DNA of 64,000 bases from Pirellulales bacterium (GCA_046349975.1 JAXMBH010000002.1:128470-192469), one strand, 5' to 3'. Positions 452 to 64,000 are shown, counted from the stretch's first letter. Notes: generated by a model not told the origin, from the letters alone. Numbers and translations: made by a program.

Positions 452-2608
452 TCAAACATGAGCCGGGTGGCGCTGGCTACTGTGATTTGCGATCGCGTCG
501 CTCAAATCACAGAGTCGGCGGCGAATTTCTGGGTCGTTGCGGAATTGCTCGGCGGTCAGCCTTGCCTTGCGACGCCAATTTGCGTTTTCTCCATCCGTGC
601 TGGGGATATTCTGCGGCAAAGTTTCCTGCCACAAATCTTCCAGGTTCACGAGCACCATTCGGCTTGCCCTATCACGCAGATATTCGACGCACGCGTTTAG
701 AACCGCCGTCGCGGGCGTCCCATGGACCGCATAACCCAGTGATTTGAAAAACCCGATGAGAGCCGCGCGAATCGTTTCGCGATCGCGTTCTTGGATTTCA
801 CATTCACCCGGCGATAGCAGGCCGGCATGCGCTCGTTCGCCAATGTCGTTGCCGTTCCAAAAACCGGCGAACGGCGGCATGTCGTGCGTGTTCAAGCTCG
901 CGATCGAATTCGCCGGCGGCTCCGGCAATGCCGCATTCCGATCCGGTTGAATTTCGTACTGCACGACATACATGCGATGAAAGTTGTGCTTCGCCATGGC
1001 CACCGGCACTTCCGGCGGCACGGTGCCCAGGTCCTCGCCGACGATCATTGTCTGGTGCCGATGCGATTCCAGGGCGTAGACTGCGTACAATTCTTCAGCC
1101 GGGTAGCGCACATACACGCCGTCCTTCGCACTCACGCCCGGTGGTATCCAAAATACGCGATGGAAACTGGGCATGTGGTCGATCCGCAACACGTTTGCGT
1201 ATCGCATTTGATGCCGCAAAAACTGCCGGATGTAGCGGTAGCCGTCGCGGCGAATATTCTCAGGGTGCAGGGGTACGAAGCCCCAATTCTGGCCGTTGGG
1301 AAACATGATATCGGGCGGACAGCCGCCGGTCGCCCCGACACCAAACAGCGATCGTTCGCGCCACACATCGTAACCGCTGGCATTTACCCCCAACGGCATG
1401 TCGAGGTACAGCCCGCTGCCACCTTCGCGGTTCGCGGCCCGCCGGATTTGCTCGTCGGCTTGCCACTGCGCGAACATGTGGTAACGCAGTGCCGCTGCAT
1501 CGACCTCGGCGCCCGCCATTTCGCCCTCGCGCAGACGATTCGGCCACTCTGACCACGGCTTCCGAAACCGCTCGCCGAGCGCGCGAAACGCGGCGTAATC
1601 TTCCAGCGAAGGATGCGCCGCAACAAACGAGTCGAAGGCAGTGCGCTCTGTCGAGCGCGACGCGAAGAACTTTGCTGCGAGCTTTTCCAGTGCCTGCCGT
1701 TTGAGCTTTGCGATCCGGCGATAGTCCACCAGCCGCTCCGTCCGCGCTGTTTCCAATTCACTACGGAACTCGGCTGTCTCGACCACGCGTCGAACCTCGG
1801 CATCGTGCGAAAAACCCACTACCTCTGGAATGTTCAGAAAGAACTCATTCCAAAACAGCCGGCTCACGGGGGAGTAGGGGCTGATTTCAAATGGTTCGTC
1901 CAGAAACGCGGCTAGCAACGGCAACGTGCCGACGATCTGCCCGCCCAACTCCTGGAGCCACTCACGCTGTTCGCGCAGGTCGCGGAAGTCGCCGGCGCCC
2001 CAGCTTTGCTGCGATTCCAAGGCGTAGAGCGGCAAGAATGCACCCCACGATCGTTGCCAGCCGCCGCCGCGGGGAGAGTAGGCACGCATCGGCGCCGCGA
2101 TGATGAGCGTCTCACATTGTTCGCTCGCGAATTGTAACGACAGCCGGTGATATCCCAGCGGCAATGCGGCCGGCACGATCAATCGTTTCGCAATTACGCC
2201 ACGATGGACCAGGGCGCACTCATCGGGAGACGCGTCGGGCAACTCGCCAAGTCGACCAGCCCAGCGGATGGCCTCGCCATTTTCAATATCGACCGACGCT
2301 TCGAAATGATGGTCCTTGGCGGCAGCCGGGACTCGCACACCAACTTCTGTCGCACCTCCGCCCCAGGCGACGACAACAGGGCTCACGCGCTGCCGACAAA
2401 TTTCGTCCTCGCGCTCGAGGACCGCTTCTTCGATGTCGTCAAAGCGGGAAACCGGCGACCCCAGCAAGTTCAGCACAGCCAAGACCGACTCCGCCGGCGA
2501 TTCGCACCGCTGGCCACGCACATCGTCATACGATGTTTGGATACCCCACAACTCGGCAAGCTTTCTGAGCGGATCGACCGCGCGGGACTTTGCGTCGGTA
2601 TTTTTCAT
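452..2608 (-). CDS. malQ: 4-alpha-glucanotransferase (amylomaltase, GH77)
   Basis: 718-aa ORF. GH77 signatures are present, including an SPYSPxSRLFWNEFFLNIPE-like segment and a MPLGVN...GYDVW region, with typical length and composition for amylomaltase fused to an N-terminal extension. Confidence 0.85.
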   Translation of the reverse strand: MKNTDAKSRAVDPLRKLAELWGIQTSYDDVRGQRCESPAESVLAVLNLLGSPVSRFDDIEEAVLEREDEICRQRVSPVVVAWGGGATEVGVRVPAAAKDHHFEASVDIENGEAIRWAGRLGELPDASPDECALVHRGVIAKRLIVPAALPLGYHRLSLQFASEQCETLIIAAPMRAYSPRGGGWQRSWGAFLPLYALESQQSWGAGDFRDLREQREWLQELGGQIVGTLPLLAAFLDEPFEISPYSPVSRLFWNEFFLNIPEVVGFSHDAEVRRVVETAEFRSELETARTERLVDYRRIAKLKRQALEKLAAKFFASRSTERTAFDSFVAAHPSLEDYAAFRALGERFRKPWSEWPNRLREGEMAGAEVDAAALRYHMFAQWQADEQIRRAANREGGSGLYLDMPLGVNASGYDVWRERSLFGVGATGGCPPDIMFPNGQNWGFVPLHPENIRRDGYRYIRQFLRHQMRYANVLRIDHMPSFHRVFWIPPGVSAKDGVYVRYPAEELYAVYALESHRHQTMIVGEDLGTVPPEVPVAMAKHNFHRMYVVQYEIQPDRNAALPEPPANSIASLNTHDMPPFAGFWNGNDIGERAHAGLLSPGECEIQERDRETIRAALIGFFKSLGYAVHGTPATAVLNACVEYLRDRASRMVLVNLEDLWQETLPQNIPSTDGENANWRRKARLTAEQFRNDPEIRRRLCDLSDAIANHSSQRHPAHV

Positions 2609-2917: not shown

Positions 2918-4741
2918 ATGGTTAAAGTATGGGTGCCAAACGCTACGACAGTTCGACTTCTGCTGAGCGAGCGCGTGATCGAAATGGAGAAGCAGCACAC
3001 GGGTTGGTGGACGGCAGCATATAAATTGCGCCACGGCGAATGCTACTCGTTTGAAGTCGACGAAAACAAAGGCCTGCCTGACCCGCGCTCACCTTGGCAG
3101 CCGGAGGGCGTGCACAGCCATTCATGCCATGTCGACCATTCGCAATTCAAATGGACTGACCAATATTGGCAACAGCGACCGCTTTCTTCGGCGATTATCT
3201 ACGAGCTGCACATCGGCACGTTCACACCGCAGGGCACATTCGATAGTGCGATCGAAAAGCTCGATCACCTCGCCGACCTCGGCGTCACGCACGTCGAAGT
3301 TATGCCAGTTGCCGCATTTCAGGGCGACCGCGGTTGGGGCTACGACGGCGTCGCGCTCTACGCCCCGCACCAGGCCTACGGCGGCCCGGAAGGTTTCAAA
3401 CGATTTGTCAACGCCTGCCACGAACGCGGCCTCGCGGTGATTCTAGATGTCGTCTACAACCACCTCGGCCCCAGCGGGAACTACCTGCCGCAATTCGGCC
3501 CGTATTTTTCCGATCGCCATTCAACTCCCTGGGGCTCGTCACTCAACTTTGACGGTCCCGACAGCGATGAAGTCCGCCGCTTTTTCTGCGACAACGCTTT
3601 GATGTGGCTCCGCGACTATCACATCGACGGTCTTCGCCTCGACGCCGTGCATGCGATCGTCGATACGTCCGCGATTCCTTTCCTCGAACAGCTGGCTGCC
3701 GAAGTCGAAGACTTGAAGGCGCACCTCGGCCGCCATTTATGCCTCATCGCCGAAAGCGACCTCAACGACCCGCGTGTCATTCGGGCGCCGGAACTCGGCG
3801 GCTTCGGCATTGACGCCCAATGGAGCGATGATATCCACCATGCGCTCCATGCCATCCTCACCGGCGAGCGCGAAGGCTACTACGAAGACTTCGGCTCGCT
3901 CGAAGACCTCGCCGTCTCGATGTACCGGCCGTATATCTACGCGGGCCGCCACTCGCCCTATCGCCGGCGCACGCACGGGCGTTCGCCGTTGGGCCTCAAC
4001 GGCCATCAGTTCGTGGCCTACATGCAGAACCACGACCAGCTCGGCAACCGCGCCCGCGGCGAACGATTGTGCCAGCTCGCCAGCGTCGAGCGTGCGAAAA
4101 TAGGCGCTGCGCTCATTCTGGTATCACCGTACATTCCCATGCTCTTCCAAGGCGAAGAGTTCGCGGCTTCGAGCCCGTTCCTTTATTTTGTCGGCTTCGA
4201 CGAGGAACCTGAGCTGGCGCAAGCGGTTGCCCAAGGGCGTTGCCAGGAATTCGCGTCGTTCGGCTGGCGGCCGGAAGACATTCCGGATCCAACGGATCGC
4301 TCGACGTTCGAAGCGTCGAAGCTGCCATGGGACGAGATCACTCAAGAGCGTCACGCGACCATGCTTGCTTGGCACAAGGCGCTTATCCAACTCCGCCGCC
4401 GCATTTCCGCGCTTACCACCGGCCGACTCGAATTGACGCATTCCGATTTCAACTCCACTGAGCAATGGCTCGACGTGCGCCGCGGCCCCATCCAGATCCT
4501 CTGCAATTTCGCTAACCAGTTAACCACGCTGCCGCTCAATCGCGAGCGCAAAACACTGATCCTCGCGTCGAAGGACGATTGTCGAATCGAGGGCGACGAG
4601 ATTCTTCTGCCCAGCGAGTCCGTCGCGATCATCGGCCCCGAATGGACGGCGAGATATCGGCCACCACAATTGGAGCGCGAGAACACGGACGGACGATCAT
4701 CTCGCCGCCCGGTGGGAGCTGCCGACGCCATCGCGCGATGA
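2918..4741 (+). CDS. treZ: malto-oligosyltrehalose trehalohydrolase (GH13)
   Basis: GH13 catalytic motifs are present (DGLRLDAVHAI, AESDLND, a QNHDQ-like motif) and an N-terminal E-set domain. The start was moved to the ATG at 2918 (MVKVWVP), which has AAGGA about 7 nt upstream. The ORF track begins at 2813. Confidence 0.85.
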   Translation: MVKVWVPNATTVRLLLSERVIEMEKQHTGWWTAAYKLRHGECYSFEVDENKGLPDPRSPWQPEGVHSHSCHVDHSQFKWTDQYWQQRPLSSAIIYELHIGTFTPQGTFDSAIEKLDHLADLGVTHVEVMPVAAFQGDRGWGYDGVALYAPHQAYGGPEGFKRFVNACHERGLAVILDVVYNHLGPSGNYLPQFGPYFSDRHSTPWGSSLNFDGPDSDEVRRFFCDNALMWLRDYHIDGLRLDAVHAIVDTSAIPFLEQLAAEVEDLKAHLGRHLCLIAESDLNDPRVIRAPELGGFGIDAQWSDDIHHALHAILTGEREGYYEDFGSLEDLAVSMYRPYIYAGRHSPYRRRTHGRSPLGLNGHQFVAYMQNHDQLGNRARGERLCQLASVERAKIGAALILVSPYIPMLFQGEEFAASSPFLYFVGFDEEPELAQAVAQGRCQEFASFGWRPEDIPDPTDRSTFEASKLPWDEITQERHATMLAWHKALIQLRRRISALTTGRLELTHSDFNSTEQWLDVRRGPIQILCNFANQLTTLPLNRERKTLILASKDDCRIEGDEILLPSESVAIIGPEWTARYRPPQLERENTDGRSSRRPVGAADAIAR

Positions 4742-44824: not shown

Positions 44825-46969
44825 GTGACGATGGGAGATCGGGCGGGCATCCTGCCGCTGCTGCTGAGAGACGATGTGATGAAGTCCAATTGCGAGCCAG
44901 TGAACATCCTGGTGGTTGACGACGTGCCAGAAAAGATTCTGGCCATCGAGGCTGCGCTGGGTGAATTGGGGCAGACACTCGTGAAGGCGAACTCGGGCCG
45001 CGAAGCGCTGCGATGCCTGCTGAAAGATGATTTCGCCGTGATCCTGCTCGATGTCAACATGCCGGAGATGGACGGCTTCGAAACGGCCGCGCTCATTCGT
45101 GAGCGGCGGCGCAGCGAACATACGCCGATCATCTTCATCACGGCCTTCAATGATGATGTGCAGATGGCGAAGGGGTACTCGCTCGGGGCGGTTGATTTCA
45201 TCTCGACGCCAATCGACCCAGACGTGCTGCGCACCAAGGTGAGTGTGTTCGTCGACCTGTTTCAGAAGACGGAGACGATCCGACAACAGGCGGCCCACCG
45301 CGTGCAACTCGCGCGGGAGCAAGCGGCTCGGCAGGTCGCTGAGAAGGCGATGCGGCGTTCCGCACTGCTCGCGGAGGCAAGCCGACTGTTGTCGCGGTCG
45401 CTGGATTTCGACACGACGCTTACCAGTTTGTACCGCACGATTGTGCCGGCGCTCGCCGATGGTTGCCAGCTCGTGCTCTACGACACGAATATGGATATCT
45501 GGTACTCGCACATCAAAACAGGCGAGGAGGAGCACGACGGCGGCAACGCCAGCTCGCACGCGCGCGTGGAGCAAGTCGACCCGACGCTGGCCTCGGTCGT
45601 GAAAAGCGCGGTCGAAAGCGGGCACGCGCAGCCGATTTCGCCGGAGTTCGTGAAGAACGCGCCGAATTTGGGGTCCCGGAAGAATTGGTCGTACGCGGTC
45701 GTGGCGCCGCTCATTGCTCGAGATATGCCGCTGGGGGCCATTGTATGCTGTCTGCAGGGCACCAACCGACAGTTCGAGCCGGCTGACCTCGCACTGATCG
45801 AAAATCTCGCGAGCCGCGCGGGGACGGCGCTCGACAATGCGCAGCTTTTCCAAACGATTCGCGAAGGCGAGCGCCGCAAGGACGAATTCCTGGCGATGCT
45901 CGGTCACGAGCTACGCAATCCACTCGCCGCGATCACCAACGCCGGTGAGCTCACGCGGCTGCTTGATGCCCAGGATCCGTCGTTCCAGGAATCACTCGAG
46001 ATCATTCGGCAGCAAGCGTCGCTCATGAAGCGGCTGGTCGACGACTTGCTCGATGTGTCGCGCATCACGAGCGGTCGCGTGCAGTTGCAGAAATCGCTCG
46101 TGGATGTGTCGGAGATCGTGACGCGCGTGGCGGAGTCGAACGATGTATTGTTCTCTTCGCGCGGTCACACATTGCACCTCAGCACGCCCGAGGAGGATTT
46201 GTTCTTGGAGGCCGATCCGTATCGGCTCGAGCAAATTCTATCGAACTTGCTGGTGAATTCGGCGAAATACACCGACCCCGGCGGCGATATTTGGTTCAGC
46301 GCGGCCCGGGAAGGCGACGATGTGGTCTTCCGTGTGCGCGATACTGGCATAGGCATTGGGCCCGATTTGCTGCCGAATGTGTTTGATCTGTTTGCACAGG
46401 CGAACCGATCGCTGCATCGGGCCGAGGGCGGTTTAGGCATTGGTTTGACGATCGTTCGCGGTCTCACCGAGCTCCACGGCGGCCGCGTGTGGGCGACCAG
46501 CGAAGGCTTTGGCCGAGGCGCTGAATTCGTGATTTCACTGCCTGCCGTCGTGGAAGCAAATAAGCCTGCTGAACCGGAAGAACCGCCGCTGGCCGAAGAG
46601 ACGATTCGGCGGCGGCGTGTGCTGGTAGTCGAAGATCAACCGGCGCTGTCGCATGTGACGGTGGCTTTGCTTAAAAAGTTGGGCCACGAGGTGCGGTCGG
46701 CGGCCGATGGTCCCGAGGCCCTGATGGCTGTGCGGGAGTACAACCCGGAAGTGGTGTTGCTCGATATCGGGTTGCCGGGCATGGATGGATATGAAGTGGC
46801 GCGTTGCGTCCGCAGCGAGCTTGGCGAGGATGCGCCGCTGCTGGTGGCGATGACCGGTTATAGCCAGCACGAGGTGAGCCGGCACGCGCGGCGTGCGGAG
46901 TTCGACCATCACCTGGTGAAGCCGGCTGATATGAGTGCGCTTAAAGAATTGCTCACGCACTCGCGTTGA
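44825..46969 (+). CDS. hybrid histidine kinase: N-terminal receiver, GAF-like linker, HisKA/HATPase_c and C-terminal receiver
   Basis: It has two receiver domains (REC1 NILVVDDVPE...ILLDVNMPEMDG and REC2 VLVVEDQPAL...VLLDIGLPGMDG), an H-box (FLAMLGHELRNPLAAI) and a G-box (GGLGIGLTIVRGLTELHGGRVWA). A possible alternative start is at 44879 (MKSNCEP). Confidence 0.85.
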   Translation: MTMGDRAGILPLLLRDDVMKSNCEPVNILVVDDVPEKILAIEAALGELGQTLVKANSGREALRCLLKDDFAVILLDVNMPEMDGFETAALIRERRRSEHTPIIFITAFNDDVQMAKGYSLGAVDFISTPIDPDVLRTKVSVFVDLFQKTETIRQQAAHRVQLAREQAARQVAEKAMRRSALLAEASRLLSRSLDFDTTLTSLYRTIVPALADGCQLVLYDTNMDIWYSHIKTGEEEHDGGNASSHARVEQVDPTLASVVKSAVESGHAQPISPEFVKNAPNLGSRKNWSYAVVAPLIARDMPLGAIVCCLQGTNRQFEPADLALIENLASRAGTALDNAQLFQTIREGERRKDEFLAMLGHELRNPLAAITNAGELTRLLDAQDPSFQESLEIIRQQASLMKRLVDDLLDVSRITSGRVQLQKSLVDVSEIVTRVAESNDVLFSSRGHTLHLSTPEEDLFLEADPYRLEQILSNLLVNSAKYTDPGGDIWFSAAREGDDVVFRVRDTGIGIGPDLLPNVFDLFAQANRSLHRAEGGLGIGLTIVRGLTELHGGRVWATSEGFGRGAEFVISLPAVVEANKPAEPEEPPLAEETIRRRRVLVVEDQPALSHVTVALLKKLGHEVRSAADGPEALMAVREYNPEVVLLDIGLPGMDGYEVARCVRSELGEDAPLLVAMTGYSQHEVSRHARRAEFDHHLVKPADMSALKELLTHSR

Positions 46970-47203
46970 GCATGTTGGGTTCAAAACGGTTTAATGGTAA
47001 GTGAGGGCTTATTCGTGTGAAGCAATCGTGCCGACGCCGTGGAAGCCGCGGCGGCAAGCGATAGTTGGGACTGCGCAAGGCGTTGCGGCTGCGAAGCGAC
47101 AAAGTAAACGCGGCATCCTTGCAGGCGACTGGGAATACTGGAAACAATTAAGTCATGTAGCTTGATTCGCTCGGGCGAACTCGGCTATCTGGAGGAAAAA
47201 AGC

Positions 47204-48676
47204 ATGTCACGCATTTTGGTAATCGATGACGATCGTTCAGTGCGGCATTTGATCGGTAAGGCATTCGAGGAATCGGATGTCGAAGTAGTGCCGGCAGCCA
47301 CTTCAGATGAAGGCCTGCAGCTGCTCGGCAGCCGGCAGTTCGACGTAGTGCTCCTCGACATTTTATTGCCAGAGTCTTCCGGTCTGGATGTGTTCGAACG
47401 CATTCGGCAGATTGACCCGAAGCTGCCAGTGATCTTCATCACGTCGCTCTCGAGCAGCGATACGGCGATCAAGGCCATGACGCTGGGCGCATTCGATTAC
47501 TTGCTTAAACCGCTCGATTTAGCGCGGATTCGCGACCTGGTGCGGCAAGCGATCGAGATTCGCCGCTTAATGAGCATTCCGGTCGAGATGCCCGGCGCTC
47601 GGAACGGGCGCATGAACGGTGCGGTGACCGAGAATCGTACCGACACGCTCGTGGGCAATAGCCCGCAGATGCAGGAAGTGTACAAGGCGATCGGCCGCGT
47701 GGCGCCGCAAGATGTGACCGTGCTCATTCGTGGCGAGAGCGGCACGGGCAAAGAGCTTGTCGCCCGGGCGCTCTATCAGCATAGCCCGCGTGTGAAGGGC
47801 CAGTTCCTAGCGGTGAACTGCGCGGCGATCCCGGATGCGTTGCTGGAAAGCGAGCTGTTCGGCCACGAGAAAGGGGCCTTCACCGGCGCCGATCAGCGGC
47901 GAATCGGCAAGTTCGAACAATGCTCGGGCGGCACGCTGTTCCTCGATGAAATTGGCGATATGTCGCCGCTCGTGCAGAGCAAGGTGCTGCGGGTGTTGCA
48001 ATCGCAACAGTTTGAACGTGTCGGCGGCAACCAGACGATCAGCACCGATGTGCGCGTCATCGCGGCGACGAACCGCGACCTCGAGAAAATGGTTGAGGAA
48101 GGCGATTTCCGTTCCGACCTCTACTACCGGCTCAGCGGGTTCACGATCCAGCTCGCCCCGTTGCGTGATCGGCCCGAGGACCTGCCGCCGTTGCTCGAAA
48201 ATTATCTGGCACTCTTCAGCAAGGAACTGAGCAAAGATGTGCACGGTTTCTCGCCCGAGGCGATGGACGTGCTGCTCAATTACTCTTGGCCCGGCAACGT
48301 ACGCGAACTGCAAAACGTGCTTAAGCAGACGTTGCTGCGATCCGCCGGGCATGTGGTGATTCCAGATTTCATTCCCGATCGTGTTCGCACGCCGGGCAGC
48401 AGCTCGGCGAGCGATGGCGGCGACTTGCCAGGGACCGACCTTCGGCAGTTCGTCGATGAACGCCTGGAACACGAATCGACGGATTTGTATGCCGAGGCAC
48501 TTGAGTTCATGGAGCGCTACGTGGTGACTCGCGTGCTCCGCGTGTGCGAGGGCAACCAGTCGAAGGCCGCCCGGATGCTCGGCATCACCCGCGGTTGTTT
48601 ACGGAGCAAGGTGCGGGCGCTCAAAGTCTCAATCGACACGCGCGTGCAGGTGGAAGGCGAGCCGGTCGAAGTCTAA
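47204..48676 (+). CDS. sigma-54-dependent response regulator (NtrC family: REC + AAA+ + Fis HTH)
   Basis: The receiver domain reads ILVIDDD...VLLDILLPESSG. The AAA+ domain has a GESGTGKE Walker A motif, a GAFTGA sigma-54 contact motif and an ESELFGHEKGAFTGA-like segment. The C-terminal HTH reads ARMLGITRGCLRSKVRAL. GGAGG lies 8 nt upstream of the chosen ATG. Confidence 0.9.
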   Translation: MSRILVIDDDRSVRHLIGKAFEESDVEVVPAATSDEGLQLLGSRQFDVVLLDILLPESSGLDVFERIRQIDPKLPVIFITSLSSSDTAIKAMTLGAFDYLLKPLDLARIRDLVRQAIEIRRLMSIPVEMPGARNGRMNGAVTENRTDTLVGNSPQMQEVYKAIGRVAPQDVTVLIRGESGTGKELVARALYQHSPRVKGQFLAVNCAAIPDALLESELFGHEKGAFTGADQRRIGKFEQCSGGTLFLDEIGDMSPLVQSKVLRVLQSQQFERVGGNQTISTDVRVIAATNRDLEKMVEEGDFRSDLYYRLSGFTIQLAPLRDRPEDLPPLLENYLALFSKELSKDVHGFSPEAMDVLLNYSWPGNVRELQNVLKQTLLRSAGHVVIPDFIPDRVRTPGSSSASDGGDLPGTDLRQFVDERLEHESTDLYAEALEFMERYVVTRVLRVCEGNQSKAARMLGITRGCLRSKVRALKVSIDTRVQVEGEPVEV

Positions 48677-49651: not shown

Positions 49652-49978
49652 CTATTTCGAAGCGTTCTGTTTTCGAGTACGGGCAGCCTTTCTTGCCGAG
49701 GCCCGTCGGGCGGCCTTTGGCCGGGCGGCCGCTGCTGCACCGCCTTTCTTGCCACCAGTACGCGATGGCACCTTGTTTTGTTCCTTGCCGCGACCGGAAC
49801 CCCCCGGTTTCTTGCCGCCATGGTCGCTGGCATTCACCGTCGCCCAGGCCCGCCGCTCCGCTTCTTTCTCCGACAAGCCGCGGCTTTCGTAGCCCTCTTC
49901 GATATGCTGCGCCTTGCGTTTTTGCTTGTCCGTATATTTCGATTTTTCGCCTCGCGGCATGACTCCCTCCCTGGCCAT
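49652..49978 (-). CDS. small Lys/Arg/Gly-rich disordered protein with conserved N-terminal PRGEKSKYTDKQKRKAQHIEEGYE...RAWATVN motif (stress-protein-like)
   Basis: 108 aa with a very basic, low-complexity C-terminus. The N-terminal about 50 aa appear to be a conserved small-protein motif seen in other bacteria. It is preceded by a consensus sigma-54 promoter. Confidence 0.5.
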   Translation of the reverse strand: MAREGVMPRGEKSKYTDKQKRKAQHIEEGYESRGLSEKEAERRAWATVNASDHGGKKPGGSGRGKEQNKVPSRTGGKKGGAAAAARPKAARRASARKAARTRKQNASK

Positions 49979-50073: not shown

Positions 50074-50089
50074 AGCAAGAACCGTGCCA
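50074..50089 (-). promoter_or_regulatory. sigma-54 (-24/-12) promoter TGGCACggttcTTGCT directing transcription of the 49978 gene
   Basis: The reverse complement of 50074-50089 is TGGCAC-N5-TTGCT, a perfect match to TGGCAC-N5-TTGCW with GG-N10-GC spacing. It lies about 95 nt upstream of the ATG at 49978. Confidence 0.55.
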
Positions 50090-53949: not shown

Positions 53950-54630
53950 TTGAGCTTTGAGAGGATACCTACTGCCATGTTTTCTGATGCCATGATACTC
54001 GTCGTTGGGGCTGATCCGCAGGACCGCGAAATCATTCTTCAAGCACTCGGCGAGACATGTCACGTGGTGGCGGCTCAAAATACGGAAGACGCGCTAGCGC
54101 ACATCTCGGATCGGGTTCAGCTCGTTATCTGTGAGAGCAACGGCGCGAGCTTTCGGGGCGAGGACCTGCTGCGGCGATGGAAGTCGACGCGGTCGGGCAC
54201 GCCGTTTCTCATGCTGATCGGTGAGCATGATGTCAACGGCGCGATCAACGCGATGAAGACTGGCGCCGATGATTGCATCGTGAAGCCGATTGCAGTTGGC
54301 GCGTTGCGTGACGCTGCAAAGGCGCTCCTGGCAAATGCTGTTGATCGGCCGGTGAACGGTTCGAACGACCCGTCGTCTGGACGCCGACGTTCAAATATCG
54401 ATATTCCGCCGGACACCTCGCTCGAGGATTTGGAGCGCGCGGCGGTCGAGCAGGCTCTCGTTCAACACCATGGCAATCGCACGCATGCGGCTCGCACCCT
54501 GGGAATTTCGGTGCGCACGCTGCAGCGGAAGTTGAAAGCATGGGGAATGCCGATCGTCTCGTTCCCTAGCTCGCCCTCAGCCGCAAATTTTCTACGATCA
54601 ACTCCATCGTTTCGGGCGCACGTTCATTAA
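53950..54630 (+). CDS. atypical response-regulator-like protein (receiver with Glu at phosphoacceptor position) + Fis-type HTH
   Basis: The REC-like N-terminus has acidic residues in the beta1 loop (LVVGADPQD) and a conserved Lys (CIVKP), but the position expected for the phosphoacceptor Asp reads LVICESNG, with Glu. The C-terminal HTH reads HGNRTHAARTLGISVRTLQRKLK. A possible alternative start is at 53977. Confidence 0.6.
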   Translation: MSFERIPTAMFSDAMILVVGADPQDREIILQALGETCHVVAAQNTEDALAHISDRVQLVICESNGASFRGEDLLRRWKSTRSGTPFLMLIGEHDVNGAINAMKTGADDCIVKPIAVGALRDAAKALLANAVDRPVNGSNDPSSGRRRSNIDIPPDTSLEDLERAAVEQALVQHHGNRTHAARTLGISVRTLQRKLKAWGMPIVSFPSSPSAANFLRSTPSFRAHVH

Positions 54631-55593: not shown

Positions 55594-55797
55594 CTAGCGA
55601 GGCAGTGCGGTTTCGAACGAGCGCACCTGCCGCTCTGCTTCATCTCGGGCGAGCCCGTACTTCTTCTCCACGGCGCCGAGGAGTTGATCTCGCTGTCCTT
55701 CGATGCGGTCGAGATCATCGTCCGTCAATTCGCCCCACTTTTCACGGATCTTACCGCGAATTTGTTTCCAGTTGGCTTTAATGATGTCGCCATTCAT
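55594..55797 (-). CDS. CsbD-family general stress protein
   Basis: The sequence MNGDIIKANWKQIRGKIREKWGELTDDDLDRIEGQRDQLLGAVEKKYGLARDEAERQV matches the CsbD pattern (KGKxKExxGxLTDDDLD...GKxDQLxGKIQERYG). The start was chosen at M5 of the tracked ORF, which has GGAGG 5 nt upstream. Confidence 0.7.
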   Translation of the reverse strand: MNGDIIKANWKQIRGKIREKWGELTDDDLDRIEGQRDQLLGAVEKKYGLARDEAERQVRSFETALPR

Positions 55798-55837
55798 AAG
55801 TGCCTCCATGTGTTTGTTGGACCGAGAACCTTCAGAT

Positions 55838-56098: not shown

Positions 56099-56115
56099 TC
56101 GCAATCGATGTGCCA
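56099..56115 (-). promoter_or_regulatory. sigma-54 promoter TGGCACatcgaTTGCGA upstream of the 56038/csbD-like minus-strand gene pair
   Basis: The reverse complement of 56099-56115 is TGGCAC-N5-TTGCG, with consensus -24 and -12 elements and correct spacing. It lies about 60 nt upstream of the ATG at 56038. Confidence 0.5.
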
Positions 56116-56306: not shown

Positions 56307-57425
56307 CTATTGGTCCGTGCTGATTTCGCTGCCAGCGCGCGTGACGAGCCGGGCGAAGTCGCGGATGTTGATATCAGCGTTCAGCCAGCGCACTGAACCA
56401 TCGCCCATGCAGAAGTTTGCGCCGCCGGGGTGAAAGCCGTATGGCTCGCCTGTGCCCACGGAGTTGTAATAGGGGTGCGGGAATGTGGCGCCGATTTCAA
56501 TGCCGTTCGTGCAGTTGACTGCGCAGGTGCCGACGTCGGTGGCGCCGTCGCCGCTCGTACCGTCGATGCTGATATCGCTGGCTGGGCGGCACCAGCCGCC
56601 GCCGTTGACCCGCTTCGCGGGAAACGTTTCGATCTGGCGGCCGCCGCGATACAGGTACGGCCGGCCGCCCGACTCGGCGTACGCGATTGTCTTTGACAGG
56701 CCGTCGGTGACCTGGTTAATTTTGGCCGGCACGTTGTAGGCCAACAAGCCCAGACCTGGCGAACCGGCGGCCGGCGGCATCGTGGCATTCGGCGGCGCGG
56801 CTTCATCAACCAGGTTCGACGCCGAGCTCGGATTCGCCGGATCCGGACGCAACCGCTTGTCGACAAAGATCGTGGGCGAGTAATCGGTCACCGCGCCGGT
56901 GTCGGGCGTCCAGGGGCTGATTTCCGGCACGCCGTCGAGGCGATTTGGTTCGGGCACCGAGGGGCATTGAAGAATGGCAATCTTCGTGTTCACGATGTCC
57001 TTGTTCCGCGCGCCCTTCGCATTCACGGTGTTGTCGGACCAGTTCTTGGCTTGATCATATTGATCGAACTTCGAACCTTCTTCGAAGAACGGCAACATCA
57101 GCGTGAAGCCGGCGATACGCGGAGCGTTCGTCAGTCCCGGCGGGCGGATGCTCGACGGAAACGTCTTCTTCGTGTCGACGTAATTGTGCATCGAGATGCC
57201 GAGCTGCCGGATATTGTTCTGGCACGAGCTGCGGCGGGCCGCTTCGCGGGCGGCTTGAATGGCGGGCAGCAGAAGCGCAACCAAGATGCCGATGATCGCG
57301 ATCACGACGAGCAACTCGACGAGCGTGAAACCACTGCGCGATGCGGCGGCGTTGCTGTGTGGCGGAGCGTTCACGCTTGCCGGCGCGCCTCCGATGCTAC
57401 GAATACTGATGGAATGGCGTGTCAT
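56307..57425 (-). CDS. DUF1559 protein with prepilin-type N-terminal cleavage/methylation domain and H-X9-DG motif (Planctomycete pseudopilin-like)
   Basis: The N-terminus [51 protein letters not shown] is the class III signal peptide/pilin-like helix. The C-terminal [15 protein letters not shown] gives the H-X9-DG motif. Confidence 0.85.
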
Positions 57426-57560: not shown

Positions 57561-58028
57561 CTAACGCAACTGGATTGGCGGTAGGTGGTTGTCGCCGGCC
57601 GCGACGCGGATGGTGATATCCGATGTCCGCGCTGACGCATACTTGACCGGCAACGCGTTGGGCCCGCCGACCAACTCATCCCCCTGACGAACTGGCTTGT
57701 ACCACTGCACGGTCAACACGTACTCGCCTTCGGGCGCGCCATCGTTGCCGTCGTATGTGGTGACGGCAAACGAACCGTCCTTCGCGACAGTGGCCCGCGG
57801 ATTCGGCACTCCCTGTTTGGCGTCCTTGGGAACCAAAGAAACAAAAGCGCCTTCCGGAGGCTTGCCGCGGAATTGAATCGCACCCTCGACCGGATGCACC
57901 GCGACGTGATTTTCCGAGCGGTTACAGCCGCAACACGCACCCGGGCCCAGAGTGGCCAGAAGCAATGCCGCCCGGATGGCCCAAGGGCGGCGTTGCTGTG
58001 CGTGAATGCGCGAACTGGTAGTAACCAT
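57561..58028 (-). CDS. small secreted/lipoprotein companion of DUF1559 proteins (transthyretin/carboxypeptidase-regulatory-like beta-sandwich)
   Basis: 155 aa. It has a signal sequence with Cys residues at its end (LLLATLGPGACCGC) and a beta-rich composition. Pairing directly downstream of a DUF1559 gene is typical. Confidence 0.5.
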   Translation of the reverse strand: MVTTSSRIHAQQRRPWAIRAALLLATLGPGACCGCNRSENHVAVHPVEGAIQFRGKPPEGAFVSLVPKDAKQGVPNPRATVAKDGSFAVTTYDGNDGAPEGEYVLTVQWYKPVRQGDELVGGPNALPVKYASARTSDITIRVAAGDNHLPPIQLR

Positions 58029-58126
58029 CGAAAGCGACCTCCCAGCGATGTGGTTGTGCGCCTCCGGTCATACCAGTCGGCTGCGAGTTGTTAAAAAGAG
58101 GGTTGTGGTTCGTGGAAAAGAAATGG

Positions 58127-58360
58127 CTAGCTGTTGTTGCGATTGGCGCGCAACCGGTGTTTCTCCGTGCGATCGATCTGGATGATAACACCGTCTTGCA
58201 CGATGATGTTCACCGACCCGAATTTCAATCCGCGTAGCGACTCACGAATTTGCGCGAGCGCTTCCTCCGCCGCGGCGTCAGCCACGCCGTTCAACGACGG
58301 CGCAGGTATCTTTGCGTGTTTCACAATGGGCTCGCTCACGGTCGTTCCTCCACCGATCAT
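58127..58360 (-). CDS. YezD/DUF2292-family small protein
   Basis: The C-terminal GSVNIIVQDGVIIQIDRTEKHRL matches the YezD signature (GxVxIxVxDGxVVQIExxEKxR). Position at the end of a sulfate-transporter operon is typical for this family. Confidence 0.6.
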   Translation of the reverse strand: MIGGGTTVSEPIVKHAKIPAPSLNGVADAAAEEALAQIRESLRGLKFGSVNIIVQDGVIIQIDRTEKHRLRANRNNS

Positions 58361-58377
58361 GATCGGTCTCTCCTCGC

Positions 58378-59469
58378 CTAGATTTCGTATTCCGGCAAGA
58401 ACACGCGAGCGTTCTTCGGATAGATGAAAACGTTCGTTCCTTCGGTCAAGCTAAGGCGTTGGTACTCATCCAGGCTGAGGTCGATGAGTACATCTTGCCC
58501 TTCGGTGGTGCGTGTGGTGACCTTCGCGATCGAGCCGGCCGGGTTGATGCGGGTGACCATCGCCGGAAAGCTCGGGGCGCCGTTTTTGTAGAGTTTGATA
58601 TCCAGTTCGTGCGGCCGCATGTACACCATGGCGGCGCCGTCGTCTTTACCGGGGAAGAGGTGGCCGTCGAGTGCGACGCCATCGAGCGGCACGCCGCCGA
58701 GCATCGCCTTGCCGCCCTGCACGCGGCCGCGGAACATATTCACCTGGCCGAGAAATTCCATCACGAATCGCGTGGCCGGTTTGTGGAACACTTCTTCCGG
58801 TGTGCCGACCTGTTCGATGCGACCCTGGTTCATCACGACGACGCGGTCGGCCACTTCGAGGGCCTCTTCCTGGTCGTGCGTCACGAGAATGCTCGTGACG
58901 TGAATCTCATCGTGCAGCCGCCGCAACCAAGTCCGCAGGTCCTGCCGCACTTTGGCATCGAGCGCTCCGAACGGTTCATCGAGCAACAGCACGCGTGGCT
59001 CCACGGCGAGCGCCCGAGCGAGCGCCGCGCGTTGCCGCTGGCCGCCGGAGAGTTGCGAGGGGAATCGCCGGCCGAGTCCATCGAGCTGCACCAGGCGGAG
59101 CAGCTCCGTGACGCGGCGTTCGATTTCCGCCTTCGCCGGCCGGGCCTTGCGGGGCATCACCCGCATGCCAAACGCCACGTTTTCGAAGATCGTCATGTGG
59201 CGGAAGAGCGCATAGTGTTGAAACACGAAGCCCACGCGGCGTTCCGCGGCCGGGCGATTGGCGACGTCTTCCTCGTAGAAGCGGATGCGTGCCCGGTCGT
59301 CGGCTTCCGGCGTATCGAGGCCCGCGATGATTCGCAGCAGCGTCGTCTTACCCGAGCCGCTGGGGCCCAACAGCGCGACCAGTTCGCCGTCGTGAATGGC
59401 GAGGCTTACATCGCGCAGCGCCTGGTAGCTGCCAAACGACTTGCTGATGTGGGTCAGTTCAATGCTCAT
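58378..59469 (-). CDS. cysA: sulfate/thiosulfate ABC transporter ATP-binding protein with C-terminal TOBE domain
   Basis: Close similarity to CysA: [13 protein letters not shown]...[19 protein letters not shown]...[15 protein letters not shown]...[31 protein letters not shown]...VTHDQEEA. Confidence 0.9.
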
Positions 59470-59471
59470 CG

Positions 59472-60404
59472 TTATTCCTCTGCCCGCGCGGGCTCAAGGG
59501 CTTGCTCAAACTCACGGCGCACGCGCCATTCGACGGCCGACTTCGCGGCCAGCGTAACGACTGCCAACAGCGCCAGGAGCGAGGCCACGGCAAAGGCCGC
59601 GGCGAAGTTGTATTCGTTGTAAAGAATCTCGACATGCAGCGGCAAAGTGTTTGTGCTGCCGCGCACGTGGCCGGAGACCACGTTCACGGCGCCGAACTCG
59701 CCCATCGCCCGGGCGTTGCACAAGATGACGCCGTACAAGACCGCCCACTTCACGTTCGGCAACGTGACACGCCAGAACGTTTGCCAACCGCTCGCGCCGA
59801 GCGACACAGCGGCGAGCTCTTCATCGGTGCCCTGCTCTTGCATGAGCGGAATCACCTCGCGAGCGACGAACGGAAATGTCACAAAGATCGTGGCCAGCAC
59901 AACGCCTGGCGTGGCGAAGATGATTTGCAGGTGATGGGCGTCGAGCCACGGGCCGAACCAGCCGCGCAGACCGAACAGGAGCACGAAGATCAAGCCAGAG
60001 ATCACGGGCGACACGGCAAATGGCAGGTCAATCAGCGTGATCAGCACGCTCTTCCCAGGGAACTGGAATTTGCCGATTGCCCAAGCCGCCGCAAGACCGA
60101 ACACCGTGTTGAGCGGCACGCAGATTACCGACACCAGCAGCGTAAGCTTAATCGCCGACAGCGCGTTGGCATCGGTGAAGCTCGCGAAGTACACGGCGAG
60201 GCCGCGGCGCAGCGCTTCGGCAAAAATCGCCACGAGCGGCAAGAACAGCACGAGCGCGAGGAAGGCGAGCGTCGCGCCGATCAGCAGCCCTTTAACCCAG
60301 GCTCGCTCGTCAGTCGCCAGCCGCAAGCGTCCGGCGAGATTGGTTTCGACGAGCGAGCCCTTGGGCGCGACTCCACCCAGCGGTAATTGTGCAACGGTGC
60401 TCAT
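59472..60404 (-). CDS. cysW: sulfate ABC transporter permease CysW
   Basis: Has the permease EAA-like loop ([10 protein letters not shown]) and is CysW-like throughout. The start was chosen at MSTVAQL (M98 of the tracked ORF), which overlaps cysT by ATGA. Confidence 0.85.
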
Positions 60405-61240
60405 GCGATCCCCCGGTATTTGCGCGTCGTCCACCACTGCAGGGCGTTGATCGCGAACAGCACAGCAAACGAGGCGGCCAGCATCATCGTCGCGATGGCC
60501 GTCGCGCCGGCGTAGTCGTATTGTTCGAGCTTCGTGATAATGAGGAGCGAAGCGATTTCCGTTCGCATCGGCATGTTGCCGGAGATGAACACCACCGAGC
60601 CGTACTCGCCGAGCGCCCGGGCAAACGACAGCGCGAAGCCCGTGAGCAGTGCCGGCATGACGCCAGGGAAAATCACGCGCCAGAACGTTTGCCACCGGGT
60701 CGCGCCCAGGCTGGCGGCCGCTTCTTCCGCTTCGCGATCGATCTCCTCGATCGCCGGCTGGAGCGTGCGGACAACAAACGGCAGGCCGATGAACGTGAGA
60801 GCGATGATGATGCCGAGCGGCGTGAACGCTACGCGAATTCCAAGTGGCTCCAGATACTGGCCGATCCAGCCATTCTTGGCGTACACCGCGGTGAGGGCGA
60901 TGCCCGAGACAGCCGTGGGCAGCGCGAACGGCAGGTCGATCATTGCGTCAATGAAACGTTTGCCGGGAAGCGAGTAGCGAACGAGCGTCCAGGCGACCAT
61001 CAGACCGAAAGCCGCGTTGATCGTGGCCGCCACGAGCGACGTGCCGAACGTGAGTTTGTAGGAGGCCACCACGCGCGGATTCCAGGCCGCGTGCCAGAAG
61101 CCTTCCCAACCAAGCGTGGCGCTCTTGATCACCAGCGCGCCGAGCGGCAGCAGCACGATGAGGCTCAGGTACAACACCGTGTAGCCCATCGTGAGGCCGA
61201 AGCCAGGGAGAGCCGTTTTTTTGGAACCGGGGAGAGTCAT
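60401..61240 (-). CDS. cysT: sulfate ABC transporter permease CysT
   Basis: 279 aa, CysT/CysU-like (ARALGEYGSVVFISGN, DLPFALPTAVSGI). Confidence 0.85.
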   Translation of the reverse strand: MTLPGSKKTALPGFGLTMGYTVLYLSLIVLLPLGALVIKSATLGWEGFWHAAWNPRVVASYKLTFGTSLVAATINAAFGLMVAWTLVRYSLPGKRFIDAMIDLPFALPTAVSGIALTAVYAKNGWIGQYLEPLGIRVAFTPLGIIIALTFIGLPFVVRTLQPAIEEIDREAEEAAASLGATRWQTFWRVIFPGVMPALLTGFALSFARALGEYGSVVFISGNMPMRTEIASLLIITKLEQYDYAGATAIATMMLAASFAVLFAINALQWWTTRKYRGIA

Positions 61241-61317
61241 CGAACCGTGCGCAATCCCTTGTGGAAGGTGGGCGTCTCCGACGCCGGAGGGTGGAAAATC
61301 GGCCGCGAGCGGCGCGT

Positions 61318-62469
61318 TTAGCGCGCTTCGTAAATCGAATCAAAGACGCCGCCGTCTTTAAAATGCTTATCGGTGGCTTCTCGCCAAGAGCCAAACACAT
61401 CTTTCACACTGAACAGCGTGAGCTGCGAAAACTGTTTGAGAACCTCAGCATCAACCAACTCCGGCATGCTGGGCCGATAGTAGTGTTTGGCCGCGAGCTT
61501 CTGACCGGCCGGGGTGTAAAGATACTCGACGTACGCTTTCGCGACTTCAATCGTGCCGTTCGTTTGGGCGTTGGCGTCGACGAGCGCTACCGGCGGTTCG
61601 GCCAGAATGCTGATCGACGGCACAACGAGCTCGACCTGTTCGGGTCCCAGCTCCTTGATCGCGAGCAACGCTTCATTTTCCCAGGCGAGCAGCACATCGC
61701 CAATGCCGCGCTGCACGAACGTAGTCGTCGAGCCGCGAGCACCGGAATCGAGCACCGGCACTTTCTTGTAGAGCGCGGCGATGTATGCCTTCGCCTTGGC
61801 TTCGTCGTTGTTATTCGCTCTGAGGGCATAGCCCCACGCAGCGAGGTAGGCTAGGCGGCCGGCGCCGGAAGTTTTCGGGTTCGACGTGATGACGTCGACG
61901 CCATCGCTTAAGAGGTCGTTCCAGTCCTTGATCGCTTTCGGATTGCCTTTGCGAACCAGGAACACGACGGTTGAACGATACGGGCTGCTGTTGTTTGGCA
62001 GCCGTTCTTGCCAGTTGGCAGGCAGTTTCTTGGTGAGGTCGGCGATTTGATCGATATCGTAAGCAATGGCAAGGCTGACGACGTCAGCCTTGAGGCCGTC
62101 AATCACCGATCGGGCTTGCGCGCCGGAGCCGCCGTGCGAGACCTTTACCGTCACCTGTTGGCCGTGCTCTTCCAACCAATGTTGGGCGAATGCTTTGTTG
62201 AAGTCGGCATAGAATTCGCGCGTGGGGTCGTACGAGACGTTGAGCAACTCGACGGCCGGCTTCGCAGCGGAAGCGTCGCTACGATTGGCAGCGGCGGTCG
62301 CTGAATCGGTTGACGTGGAAACACCGGCGATCCGCGAATCACAGCCACCCAGTGCGCACAAGCCGGCGGCTAGGGCGAGCGTCACATAGGAACGTGCGGC
62401 CGAACGGCGAAGGGGTGATGCCGTCAGGCCCGAAGCTGGACCTTCCTCGGCGGTATCCGCATTGACCAT
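61318..62469 (-). CDS. sbp: sulfate/thiosulfate-binding periplasmic protein
   Basis: Sbp/CysP-like throughout (LLNVSYDPTREFY...SHGGSGAQARSVIDGL...SNPKTSGAGR). The start was chosen at MVNADTAE, before a lipoprotein-like signal ending in LGGC. The tracked ORF extends to 62568. Confidence 0.8.
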   Translation of the reverse strand: MVNADTAEEGPASGLTASPLRRSAARSYVTLALAAGLCALGGCDSRIAGVSTSTDSATAAANRSDASAAKPAVELLNVSYDPTREFYADFNKAFAQHWLEEHGQQVTVKVSHGGSGAQARSVIDGLKADVVSLAIAYDIDQIADLTKKLPANWQERLPNNSSPYRSTVVFLVRKGNPKAIKDWNDLLSDGVDVITSNPKTSGAGRLAYLAAWGYALRANNNDEAKAKAYIAALYKKVPVLDSGARGSTTTFVQRGIGDVLLAWENEALLAIKELGPEQVELVVPSISILAEPPVALVDANAQTNGTIEVAKAYVEYLYTPAGQKLAAKHYYRPSMPELVDAEVLKQFSQLTLFSVKDVFGSWREATDKHFKDGGVFDSIYEAR

Positions 62470-62534
62470 CGCAATAACTCCCGAAACTTGCGCCCAAGAT
62501 TGGTGGCCCGAAGTGCAGCGGTGCTGCGATGCAC

Positions 62535-62556
62535 TGGCAACGCAATTGCAATGCCA
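62535..62556. promoter_or_regulatory. quasi-palindromic sigma-54 promoter-like element TGGCAAcgcaaTTGCAATGCCA between sbp and the divergent sigma-54 activator gene
   Basis: The minus strand reads TGGCAT-tgcaa-TTGCG, a consensus -24/-12 about 70 nt upstream of the sbp start. The plus strand reads TGGCAA-cgcaa-TTGCA, pointing at the activator gene. Confidence 0.5.
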
Positions 62557-62715
62557 AGCAGTATGCACCCTCAGGATTCAGCTAAAATCCGCAGAAACGC
62601 GCTGCTAGCCGTGGCTTATGCTGGCGTTGCAGAAGGTGTTTCCGTTAAATATAATAGTAAGCTCCATCATATGTGATTGTTGACGCGGAAATATCACAGA
62701 GGTGATCAACTTAGT

Positions 62716-64000
62716 ATGGTAATGCAAGCATTGCAATTGTCGCTGTGGCAAACCATCTCCCGCCATTTGGAAATCAGCGAGTCGACCGAAACGACGGCGG
62801 AACTTCTCGCTGAGCAAGTGCCGTTGGATGCGTTCGTCGTGGGCCGCGTCGATGCGGAGCATCGCCGCGTGCTGTTTGTTGCCCAATGGCCGACACAAGT
62901 TCTTGGCAATGGCAGCAGCGAGGTCCAGCTGTCGGAGAGCGATTGGCGGCGCTTCGATCGTTGGCTTCGGCAACGTTTCCCCAGTCAGCAAACCCCCGAT
63001 GGCCGCTCGCTGCCGATTGCCAAACTGTTGCGTTTGCCTTTGGCGGCGGAGGATTGGCTGCTCGCGCCGCTGCTCGGCGAGCACGGGTCGAGCGGCGTGT
63101 TGTTCGCTGTCGCAGCGCAGCGCAAGCTGTTTACGCCGCAGCACCACGAATTGCTCGATTCGGTACGTGAGCCGCTGGCGGTGGCGCTTGATAACGACGC
63201 CCGCTTGCACGAGCTTGCGGCCCTCCGGCAAGCGGCGGAAGCCGAGCGGCAGGCGCTCTTGCGGCGCTTAGGCCGCAGCGACTCGGGCGAGACAATTGTC
63301 GGCGAAGACGCAGGCCTCGCTCCTGTGATGCAGCGCGTCGATCTGGTGAGCAAGTCAGAAGTGCCGGTATTGATTCTGGGCGAGACGGGCACGGGCAAGG
63401 AGTTGGTGGCCCGCGCGATTCACAATCGCAGCGAGCGGCACAGCGGGCCGTTTCTGCGCGTGAATTGCGGTGCGATTCCGCGGGAGTTGATCGATTCACA
63501 GCTGTTCGGTCATGAGAAAGGCAGCTTTACCGGAGCGGCCGAGGCTCGCCAGGGATGGTTCGAGCGGGCCGACATGGGGACGCTGTTCCTCGACGAAATC
63601 GGCGAGTTGCCGCTCGATGCTCAGGTGCGGTTCTTGCGCGTGCTACAAGACGGCTACGTTGAACGGGTGGGCGGCGCGAAGCCGATTCGCGTCAATGTGC
63701 GGGTTGTGGCGGCCACGCACCGTGATCTCGCGGCGATGGTTCGCGAGGGCACGTTCCGCGAAGACCTGTGGTATCGCATCGCCGTGTTCCCAATTCTCCT
63801 GCCGCCTCTGCGCGATCGCGTGGGCGACATTGCCGCATTGGCGCGGCATTTTACGCAGCGAGCGGCAATCCGCTTCGGGCTCGCATCTGTTGAGCCGACG
63901 GAGGCCGATTTGCGGTTGCTGGAAAGCTACGATTGGCCGGGCAACATTCGCGAACTGGGGGCGGTAATCGACCGCGCGGCCATCCTGGGTGACGGCCGGA
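62716..64000 (+). CDS. sigma-54-dependent transcriptional activator with N-terminal GAF-like sensor domain (partial; the gene continues past the window end)
   Basis: Not in the ORF track because it has no stop in the window. Translation from the ATG at about 62716 reads [20 protein letters not shown]... The N-terminal half is GAF-like, followed by [81 protein letters not shown]...[19 protein letters not shown]. This AAA+ domain has Walker A and GAFTGA-type motifs. Confidence 0.8.

Follow-up and report, generated by a model that had tools for sequence, protein, structure and literature searches.

A predicted sigma-54 promoter and GAF-domain activator at the sulfate-uptake operon of a Pirellulales bacterium

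Introduction

Only for a few phyla has the control of sulfate assimilation been worked out, with CysB and Cbl, CymR, CysR and McbR as the regulators. CysB is a tetramer of the LysR type that acts at sigma-70 promoters and has N-acetylserine as its inducer. Planctomycetota, abundant members of soil, lake and ocean communities with a heavy role in the turnover of sulfated polysaccharides, are to our knowledge essentially uncharted in this respect. Here, we analyze a stretch of 64,000 nucleotides (nt) from a Pirellulales bacterium (GCA_046349975.1, JAXMBH010000002.1:128470-192469; the whole stretch is referred to as the window, and positions are counted from its first letter), in which the sulfate-uptake operon sbp-cysT-cysW-cysA-DUF2292 lies divergent from the gene of a sigma-54 activator with a GAF and an AAA+ domain. 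As judged from sequence comparison, the operon is quite probably controlled by a sigma-54 promoter, this neighboring activator and an enhancer of dyad sites upstream of the promoter.

Among the sigma-54 activators with a GAF domain, NifA has the dyad motif TGT-N10-ACA. In sulfur metabolism, SfnR of Pseudomonas putida and P. aeruginosa is a sigma-54-dependent activator in the sulfate-starvation response (Endoh 2003, 2005 and Habe 2007, as cited in PMC8234197). The literature searched, outside whose scope lies the work of Studholme and Dixon (2004) on activators of Pirellula sp. strain 1, holds no account of sigma-54 and an activator controlling sbp-cysTWA, cysK or cysDN, and a cross-phylum survey of sigma-54 regulons from 2025 that includes Planctomycetia does not mention sulfate (PMC12316311).

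The sigma-54 promoter facing sbp

The spacer of 246 base pairs (bp) between sbp and the activator gene contains two matches to the -24/-12 pattern TGGCA-N6-TTGC, one on the minus strand, facing sbp (62542-62556), and one on the plus strand (62535-62549). As only ~0.004 matches are expected in such a spacer, the presence of two is not due to chance; in the entire window, the pattern occurs four times, compared to 0.97 expected. The minus-strand element (Table 1) scores 13.2, and scores this high are found at 6e-5 per position per strand in 1.14 Mb, which corresponds to ~0.015 per 250-nt spacer. The start site of sbp transcription is predicted near 62530, resulting in a 5' untranslated region (5'UTR) of ~60 nt.

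Related loci were gathered from genomes with Sbp as query, from metagenomes with an alignment of the activator's N-terminal region and by individual look-ups of orthologs; the metagenome scan found nothing when a single N-terminal sequence served as query, whereas the alignment-based query succeeded. In the resulting comparison set for promoter and activator, comprising 25 related loci, an element TGGCAY-N5-TTGC scoring at least 13.2 is positioned on the target strand in 22 loci, with an invariant GG and GC and a spacer that varies. In the alignment of the 10 closest intergenic regions, the blocks A[AC]GCAA and [AG]TGCCAA are likewise fixed while the five bases between them vary by locus; these blocks are the reverse complement of TTGGCAY-N5-TTGC. 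Conservation of GG-N10-GC on one strand around a free spacer is thus the pattern of a sigma-54 promoter rather than that of a protein operator.

The upstream dyad sites

A hallmark of these promoters is a 16-bp dyad, CCGTnAnATnTnACGG, of which one to three copies, most often two or three, are located 40-230 nt upstream of the sigma-54 element at intervals of 20-23 bp, that is, about two helical turns. The positions of the first two sites in the window are each matched in 10 other loci (-119 to -123 for site 1 and -142 to -146 for site 2, relative to the predicted sbp start), and dyad centers at -120 (+/-3) and -143 (+/-3) are found in 12 Pirellulales-type loci including the window, in the same manner for sbp and for cysK as the first gene. 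A weak third site in the window is underlain by a direct repeat, AAATATAATAG / AAATATCACAG, with a spacing of 42 bp, which belongs to a block conserved in the alignment; third sites are also present in L106 (at -164) and L084 (at -161).

Matches to the dyad of at least 11/12 specified positions number eight in 1.14 Mb, and all eight are upstream of sigma-54 elements of activator-linked loci. A paired signature was defined as a sigma-54 element scoring at least 13 together with a dyad of at least 9/12 lying 40-230 nt upstream. The genome scan with Sbp, which yielded mostly proteobacterial loci and the activator only in L001 and L079, provided the other 78 loci as negative controls: a single paired signature was found in the 868 kb that these non-planctomycete sbp loci cover, at a place other than upstream of sbp, and the only one in the 64-kb window is that at the sbp promoter. 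Dyad-like matches elsewhere in the window (at 53863, 55829 and other positions; 9-10/12) have no sigma-54 partner and correspond to the background rate.

In L094, where the activator gene is situated downstream of cysA and is not divergent, the sbp promoter is still preceded by a dyad at a distance of 87 nt; the dyad thus goes with the promoter rather than with the start region of the activator gene. The sequence ATATAATAG near the activator start was considered as a sigma-70 -10 box, but the corresponding TTGCAG-17-TATAAT fails the scan criteria; it is part of the dyad motif, since L094 also has it in front of sbp, without an activator gene behind it. The dyads are predicted to form the enhancer to which the activator binds. 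Between enhancer and promoter, a conserved A-tract (Table 1) is possibly a bend or a site of the IHF type.

The GAF/AAA+ activator

The activator consists of a GAF domain (approximately residues 1-150), a coiled linker (to ~190) and an AAA+ domain (residues 194-432), with the Walker A motif GETGTGKE at 63379 and a GSFTGA loop at 63520. The full-length protein P0001 (527 residues) is nearly identical, differing in one residue over the part it shares with the activator in the window. In 120 orthologs, the loop that contacts sigma-54 reads GAFTGA in 61 and GSFTGA in 57; the same replacement of A by S is found in LevR, a validated activator (PMC3162934). A putative Fis-type DNA-binding C-terminus is represented in several orthologs by a precomputed match to PF02954.

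The AlphaFold2 (AF2) model of residues 1-215 (pLDDT 83, pTM 0.74) reveals an alpha/beta core of the GAF type and, behind it, a long helix, and the top-ranking Foldseek matches in the PDB are GAF domains or GAF-containing sensor modules with E ~1e-6, led by 3K2N and including the GAF domains of PtsP. A GAF fold of the N-terminal domain is supported by this modeling. At 50% identity, sequences of the domain form ~275 clusters at an E limit of 1e-3 and 84 at one of 1e-10; the weaker phmmer matches include several long proteins of ~1,000-2,900 residues, which are matched in repeated stretches. Residues W11, R16-H17, P36, P118-L119 and G127 are invariant across distant groups and give no pointer to a ligand. 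The scores against the NCBIfam equivalogs all remain below the cut-offs (NorR, 330 vs 476; NifA, 320 vs 529; FhlA, 300 vs 830), and by its sequence the activator is placed outside every named activator family.

Conservation and targets of the activator family

Sulfur genes adjoin every activator ortholog with readable flanks. The arrangement of sbp-cysTWA (usually followed by DUF2292) divergent from the activator is seen in at least 16 loci for which DNA is available; the gene tables of P0010 and P0019 show it as well. Other genes occupy the divergent position elsewhere: cysK in L083, L084 and L095 (TIGR01139, 389-418 bits vs a cut-off of 351), cysD-cysN in L085 and a TauE/SafE permease in L092. 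Further genes are located behind a second sigma-54 element, namely a porin O/P in L094, where the element is accompanied by dyads, and DUF1254 followed by cysK in L087 and L089. The activator gene is co-directional and placed after cysA in L094, L098 and L099. All organism-labeled homologs are planctomycete (Pirellulales, Lacipirellulaceae, Planctomycetia or Planctomycetaceae); the best match of Sbp among the species-representative genomes of GTDB is 72% identical. Judging from its gene neighborhood, the family has the appearance of a sigma-54 regulator of sulfate assimilation that extends across Planctomycetia.

Two further observations concern these relatives. In L095, a second, perfect-scoring sigma-54 element, TGGCACGTTTCTTGCA, is located between cysK and sbp (1778-1793, minus strand) without dyads of its own, the nearest ones being 1.4 kb upstream, at the cysK promoter. 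On the 3' side of the activator gene (L106 10260-12293; L107 6843-10270; tables P0009, P0010 and P0019), relatives encode a YgfK-like Fe-S protein of ~680 residues in convergent orientation as well as threonine-synthase-like enzymes of the PALP family; the window ends before the corresponding region. Neither the YgfK-like nor the PALP genes have the signature, and they are not counted as members of the regulon.

Proposed mode of regulation

The operon is probably switched on in the following manner: (i) the sigma-54 holoenzyme would occupy 62541-62556 as a closed complex that does not open unaided; (ii) the activator would bind to the two or three phased CCGTnAnATnTnACGG dyads at 62642-62699, ~110-170 bp upstream; (iii) it would assemble into an oligomeric ATPase ring and contact the promoter by looping of the DNA, possibly helped by the A-tract; (iv) ATP-driven remodeling of the closed complex would then allow transcription to start near 62530. 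The GAF domain may gate the ATPase according to sulfur status, such that more sulfate is imported when sulfur is scarce. Sulfur limitation is, by analogy with CysB, the signal we consider rather likely, and O-acetylserine, N-acetylserine, sulfide and adenosine 5'-phosphosulfate (APS) can be guessed as ligands from the cases of CysB and Cbl. Because the start codon of the activator gene follows the dyads at a distance of 35-75 bp, occupancy of the dyads probably also mediates autoregulation. The analysis shows the identities of the genes, the promoter and dyad motifs together with their conservation and specificity, and the GAF fold; we infer the dependence on sigma-54 in vivo, the identity of the protein that binds to the dyads, the direction of regulation and the sign of the control by the GAF domain.

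Beyond the sbp operon, the family may in Planctomycetia also control cysK, cysDN and anion channels, which is the task of CysB in enterobacteria. A bolder version of this idea, which falls somewhat short of an even chance, holds that the GAF activator is the master regulator of sulfur assimilation in Planctomycetia, replacing CysB, with an enhancer code of its own (CCGTnAnATnTnACGG) and a GAF pocket for a metabolite that reports sulfur status and would be new as a ligand of GAF domains; in the lineage of the window, it might also fire two overlapping promoters on opposite strands.

A preliminary description of the window had proposed that an sbp-cysTWA-yezD operon is under the control of sigma-54 and a divergent GAF-AAA+ activator. 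NCBIfam and Pfam models bear out the operon, with its last gene assigned to DUF2292 and below the OscA cut-off, and the PF00158 match, the GSFTGA loop and the modeled GAF fold agree with the activator. Whether the pairing with sbp extends to related genomes had been posed as a question, and the at least 16 loci and the 22 sbp-strand elements answer it in the affirmative. Computationally, promoter, synteny, dyad conservation and GAF fold thus support the proposed control.

A number of observations weigh against the proposed control or limit its reach. Two loci depart from the pattern: L079, labeled as a gammaproteobacterial metagenome-assembled genome, keeps the divergent pair, but its element upstream of sbp (TGGCAT-N9-TTGCT, 3255-3274, plus strand) is four bases too long, and neither a canonical promoter nor a dyad was found there at relaxed thresholds; in L085, AG replaces the invariant GG in TAGCATGGGAGTTGCAT upstream of cysDN (1551-1567, minus strand). 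Derivation and scoring of the dyad consensus relied on one and the same set of loci, a circularity that the controls lessen without removing it, and the window's own dyads are degenerate (10/12 and 9/12). On the protein side, the Pfam model GAF_3 reaches 20.6 bits on the N-terminal region, below its cut-off of 27, and HTH_8 on residues 475-511 of P0001 is weak (18 bits vs a cut-off of 22). An RpoN box was sought in the 64-kb window and none was found; in Rhodopirellula baltica, a model organism of the Pirellulales, rpoN (RB6491) is present and expressed (PMC2754498). Sulfate and thiosulfate specificity (Sbp vs CysP) are not separable by the models used, and a regulator of the CysB type could be acting additionally.

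The palindrome and the activator strand

The sbp element is embedded in a palindrome of 22 nt, TGGCAACGCAATTGCAATGCCA (62535-62556), in which the -24/-12 consensus is matched on both strands. The preliminary description had read it as a sigma-54 promoter in both directions. At the level of the match to the consensus this holds for both strands; in orthologous loci, the palindrome recurs only in L103, the nearest relative, whose activator shares 86% identity with that of the window over the portion the window encodes. Absence of the palindrome from orthologous loci had been named beforehand as a refuting outcome, and it counts against the bidirectional reading and not against the sbp promoter.

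In the bidirectional reading, which would add to the proposed control of sbp rather than replace it, the element at 62535-62550 (plus strand) drives the activator gene and the same enhancer mediates positive autoregulation. We regard this as unlikely, albeit as the most substantial of the alternatives. The activator-strand element outscores the sbp element (13.9 vs 13.2), and the entire block is conserved in L103, including 6 nt that are superfluous to the sbp promoter, amid flanks that are only ~50% identical. The plus-strand element itself is kept in L103 with one different spacer base and as such in no other locus. A different sigma-54-like block, [TG]GGAA-N6-TTGCA, with fixed ends and varying spacer, is present on the activator strand in six loci that are more distant, namely L105, L107, L081, L110, L082 and L001, where it is placed 38-42 nt towards sbp from the sbp sigma-54 element and hence inside the predicted sbp 5'UTR; judged by its sequence, it could be a sigma-54-like promoter of the activator gene, an operator or an RNA element. 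The geometry depends on the clade, however, being back-to-back with an overlap in the window and in L103 and face-to-face at 38-42 nt in the six loci, and the six plus two loci represent only about three independent lineages. Moreover, L106, L108 and all distant groups have no activator-strand element of either kind, TGGAA deviates from TGGCA at a normally well-conserved position, and the dyads would fall downstream of such a start, within the activator's 5'UTR, which is atypical. A perfect inverted repeat of 12 nt that links the promoter block to codons 5-8 of the activator gene (62543-62554 / 62728-62739) is not conserved in L103 and is probably a chance occurrence.

Other readings of the locus

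The proposed control by sigma-54 and the GAF activator could also serve a signal other than sulfur limitation, such as induction by sulfate or thiosulfate or defense against selenate, chromate or molybdate. Proteins of the DUF2292/OscA type are named for a context of sulfur starvation and chromate (NCBIfam NF033785 description), and the YgfK-like Fe-S protein adjoins the activator in several relatives. The genes linked to the activator are, however, those of the assimilation core (cysK above the equivalog cut-off, cysD and cysN), which fits a cysteine-biosynthesis regulon better than detoxification, and the YgfK-like gene is convergent and devoid of the signature, which makes such a signal improbable.

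It is more improbable still that the sbp promoter is served by another activator and that the GAF activator controls something else. Activators can work in trans, and the gene of a second activator, of the NtrC type (47162-48676), is 14 kb distant. In those related loci that were read, however, synteny of this regulator with sbp is absent. The GAF activator, in contrast, adjoins the combined signature of sigma-54 element and dyads in 22 loci with N-terminal identities ranging from ~33% to 86%, and the signature tracks the GAF family to cysK, TauE and porin targets.

Least credible of all is that the palindrome is the operator of a conventional regulator, CysB-like or other, next to a sigma-70 promoter and that its -24/-12 likeness is fortuitous: the block is near-palindromic (13-nt arms, 85% complementary) and control by CysB is the textbook case, but the dyad symmetry is lost beyond L103 while GG-N10-GC is kept on one strand, a LysR-type helix-turn-helix (HTH) pattern was not found in the window with a crude regular expression, and a sigma-70 scan of 57900-62800 gave a single weak match (9/12 positions, 62677-62648, minus strand), which is at chance level, so that calling the sigma-54 element the sole recognizable promoter upstream of sbp, as had been done before, is fair.

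Genes of the operon and neighboring features

The five tightly packed minus-strand genes of the operon span 58127-62469 (Table 1). All four transporter components (Sbp, CysT, CysW and CysA) exceed the curated cut-offs of their NCBIfam families. Sbp also passes the model of the thiosulfate-binding CysP (354 vs 308) and carries a probable lipoprotein signal (LRRSAA...LGGC) as read from its sequence; CysA in addition matches the models for the CysA C-terminal and TOBE domains (PF17850, PF12857). The start codon of cysW overlaps the stop codon of cysT (4 nt, as read off the sequence), and the DUF2292 gene starts 17 nt past cysA. The DUF2292 protein scores 44 bits against the NCBIfam OscA model, below the cut-off of 85, and occupies the same operon slot in L093, L106, L107, L108 and the gene tables of P0010 and P0019. 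The sbp frame is open up to GTG 62568, the first codon of the longest ORF (open reading frame); the true start is ATG 62469, because GGGAG precedes it and it is conserved in L103. An Rfam scan of the sbp leader for a riboswitch or other known RNA gave no match at E up to 1, and tblastn with cysK, cysD, cysN and TauE found no other cys genes in the 64-kb window.

Table 1. Coordinates of the sulfate-uptake operon, its predicted control elements and the divergent activator gene in the window
Feature	Position	Strand	Remarks
DUF2292 small protein (YezD/OscA-like, 77 residues), last gene of the operon	58127..58360	-	Pfam PF10055, E 8e-18
cysA, ATPase of sulfate/thiosulfate ABC transporter	58378..59469	-	TIGR00968, 379 bits vs cut-off 342.75
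cysW, permease	59472..60404	-	TIGR02140, 406 bits vs cut-off 329
cysT, permease	60401..61240	-	TIGR02139, 423 bits vs cut-off 246
sbp, sulfate-binding protein	61318..62469	-	NF008022, 456 bits vs cut-off 288
Sigma-54-like element TGGCAACGCAATTGCA, function uncertain	62535..62550	+ (activator strand)	10-nt overlap with the sbp element
Sigma-54 -24/-12 element TGGCATTGCAATTGCG facing sbp	62541..62556	-	Fits TGGCAC-N5-TTGCW; GG/GC spacing exact
A-tract between enhancer and promoter	62584..62587		AAAA block aligned in 10/10 intergenic regions
Dyad site 1 CCGTTAAATATAATAG	62642..62657		10/12 specified positions; center ~-120 from predicted sbp start
Dyad site 2 CCATCATATGTGATTG	62664..62679		9/12; center ~-142; 22 bp from site 1
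Weak third dyad site CGCGGAAATATCACAG	62684..62699		8/12 (manual count); 20 bp beyond site 2
Sigma-54 activator (enhancer-binding protein)	62716..64000	+	ORF divergent from sbp, runs past window end; PF00158, E 2.9e-69 over residues 194-360

Immediately 3' of the operon, on the minus strand, are the genes of a DUF1559 protein with a prepilin-type N-terminus (56307-57425) and of a lipoprotein-like protein of 155 residues (57561-58028); this gene order is shared with L106 and the tables P0010 and P0019, and the sigma-54 and dyad signature is present at neither gene. Several features elsewhere in the window also relate to sigma-54. A hybrid histidine kinase (44825-46969, plus strand) precedes the NtrC-type response regulator mentioned above, which comprises a receiver (REC) domain, an AAA+ domain with GAFTGA and an HTH and is the second sigma-54 activator of the window. 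A receiver domain combined with a Fis-type HTH and no AAA+ domain between them (53950-54630, plus strand) looks like an NtrC-like regulator minus its ATPase. The best sigma-54 match of the window, TGGCACGGTTCTTGCT (50074-50089, minus strand; score 15.1), is ~95 nt upstream of a lysine-rich ORF of 108 residues without a Pfam match (49652-49978). Another sigma-54-like element, TGGCACATCGATTGCG (56100-56115, minus strand), is ~65 nt upstream of an ORF of 66 residues that is followed by csbD (55594-55809), and the syntenic relative L106 has CGGCACACGGATTGCT (523-538, minus strand) ahead of a small ORF and csbD of its own; going by this sequence correspondence, the two elements probably represent a further conserved sigma-54 promoter, one that serves small stress genes.

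Comparison with known systems

The widespread activator family, its predicted regulon and its enhancer motif are new, whereas the mechanism of GAF-type sigma-54 activators is known. If the proposed control is correct, the remit of sigma-54, which covers nitrogen, carbon and the cell envelope, would extend to core sulfur assimilation; the combination of promoter and 16-bp dyad would provide a cis-code for predicting regulons in hundreds of genomes; and the GAF domain, presumably of a new small-molecule specificity, would be a potential biosensor.

The solved single-domain structure closest in fold to the GAF domain is PDB 3K2N, the GAF domain of a sigma-54-dependent regulator from Chlorobium tepidum (Foldseek E 1.6e-6, TM 0.58/0.68); it is a structural-genomics entry whose hit description states no function, and at 20% identity it gives no clue to the ligand. 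NifA, FhlA and NorR, all of which are among the five best NCBIfam matches, share with the planctomycete activator the succession of GAF domain, AAA+ domain with GAFTGA and Fis-type HTH, the last being a candidate in the planctomycete protein, as well as the binding to upstream dyad sites, which is predicted for it; the match rests on the AAA+ domain, however, and the planctomycete protein differs in its divergent GAF domain, its targets and its dyad motif.

SfnR is the only well-known case in which sigma-54 and an activator serve sulfur acquisition. In contrast to the planctomycete activator, it drives the organosulfur genes sfnFG, sfnA and msu and is itself subordinate to CysB, according to references in PMC8234197. 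It is not reported at sbp-cysTWA, cysK or cysDN; the two regulators are compared by description only.

In function, the closest counterpart is CysB of Escherichia coli and Salmonella, with which the planctomycete activator has its predicted target set in common (sbp/cysPTWA, cysK and cysDN), presumably together with the logic of being on when sulfur is short, and which likewise is often encoded beside a target. The two are unrelated in sequence: the planctomycete regulator combines an AAA+ ATPase and a GAF sensor, and it is predicted to act at sigma-54 promoters while bound 85-205 bp upstream of them. Sequence and gene neighborhood are thus pointing to a so far undescribed stand-in for the classical regulator CysB.

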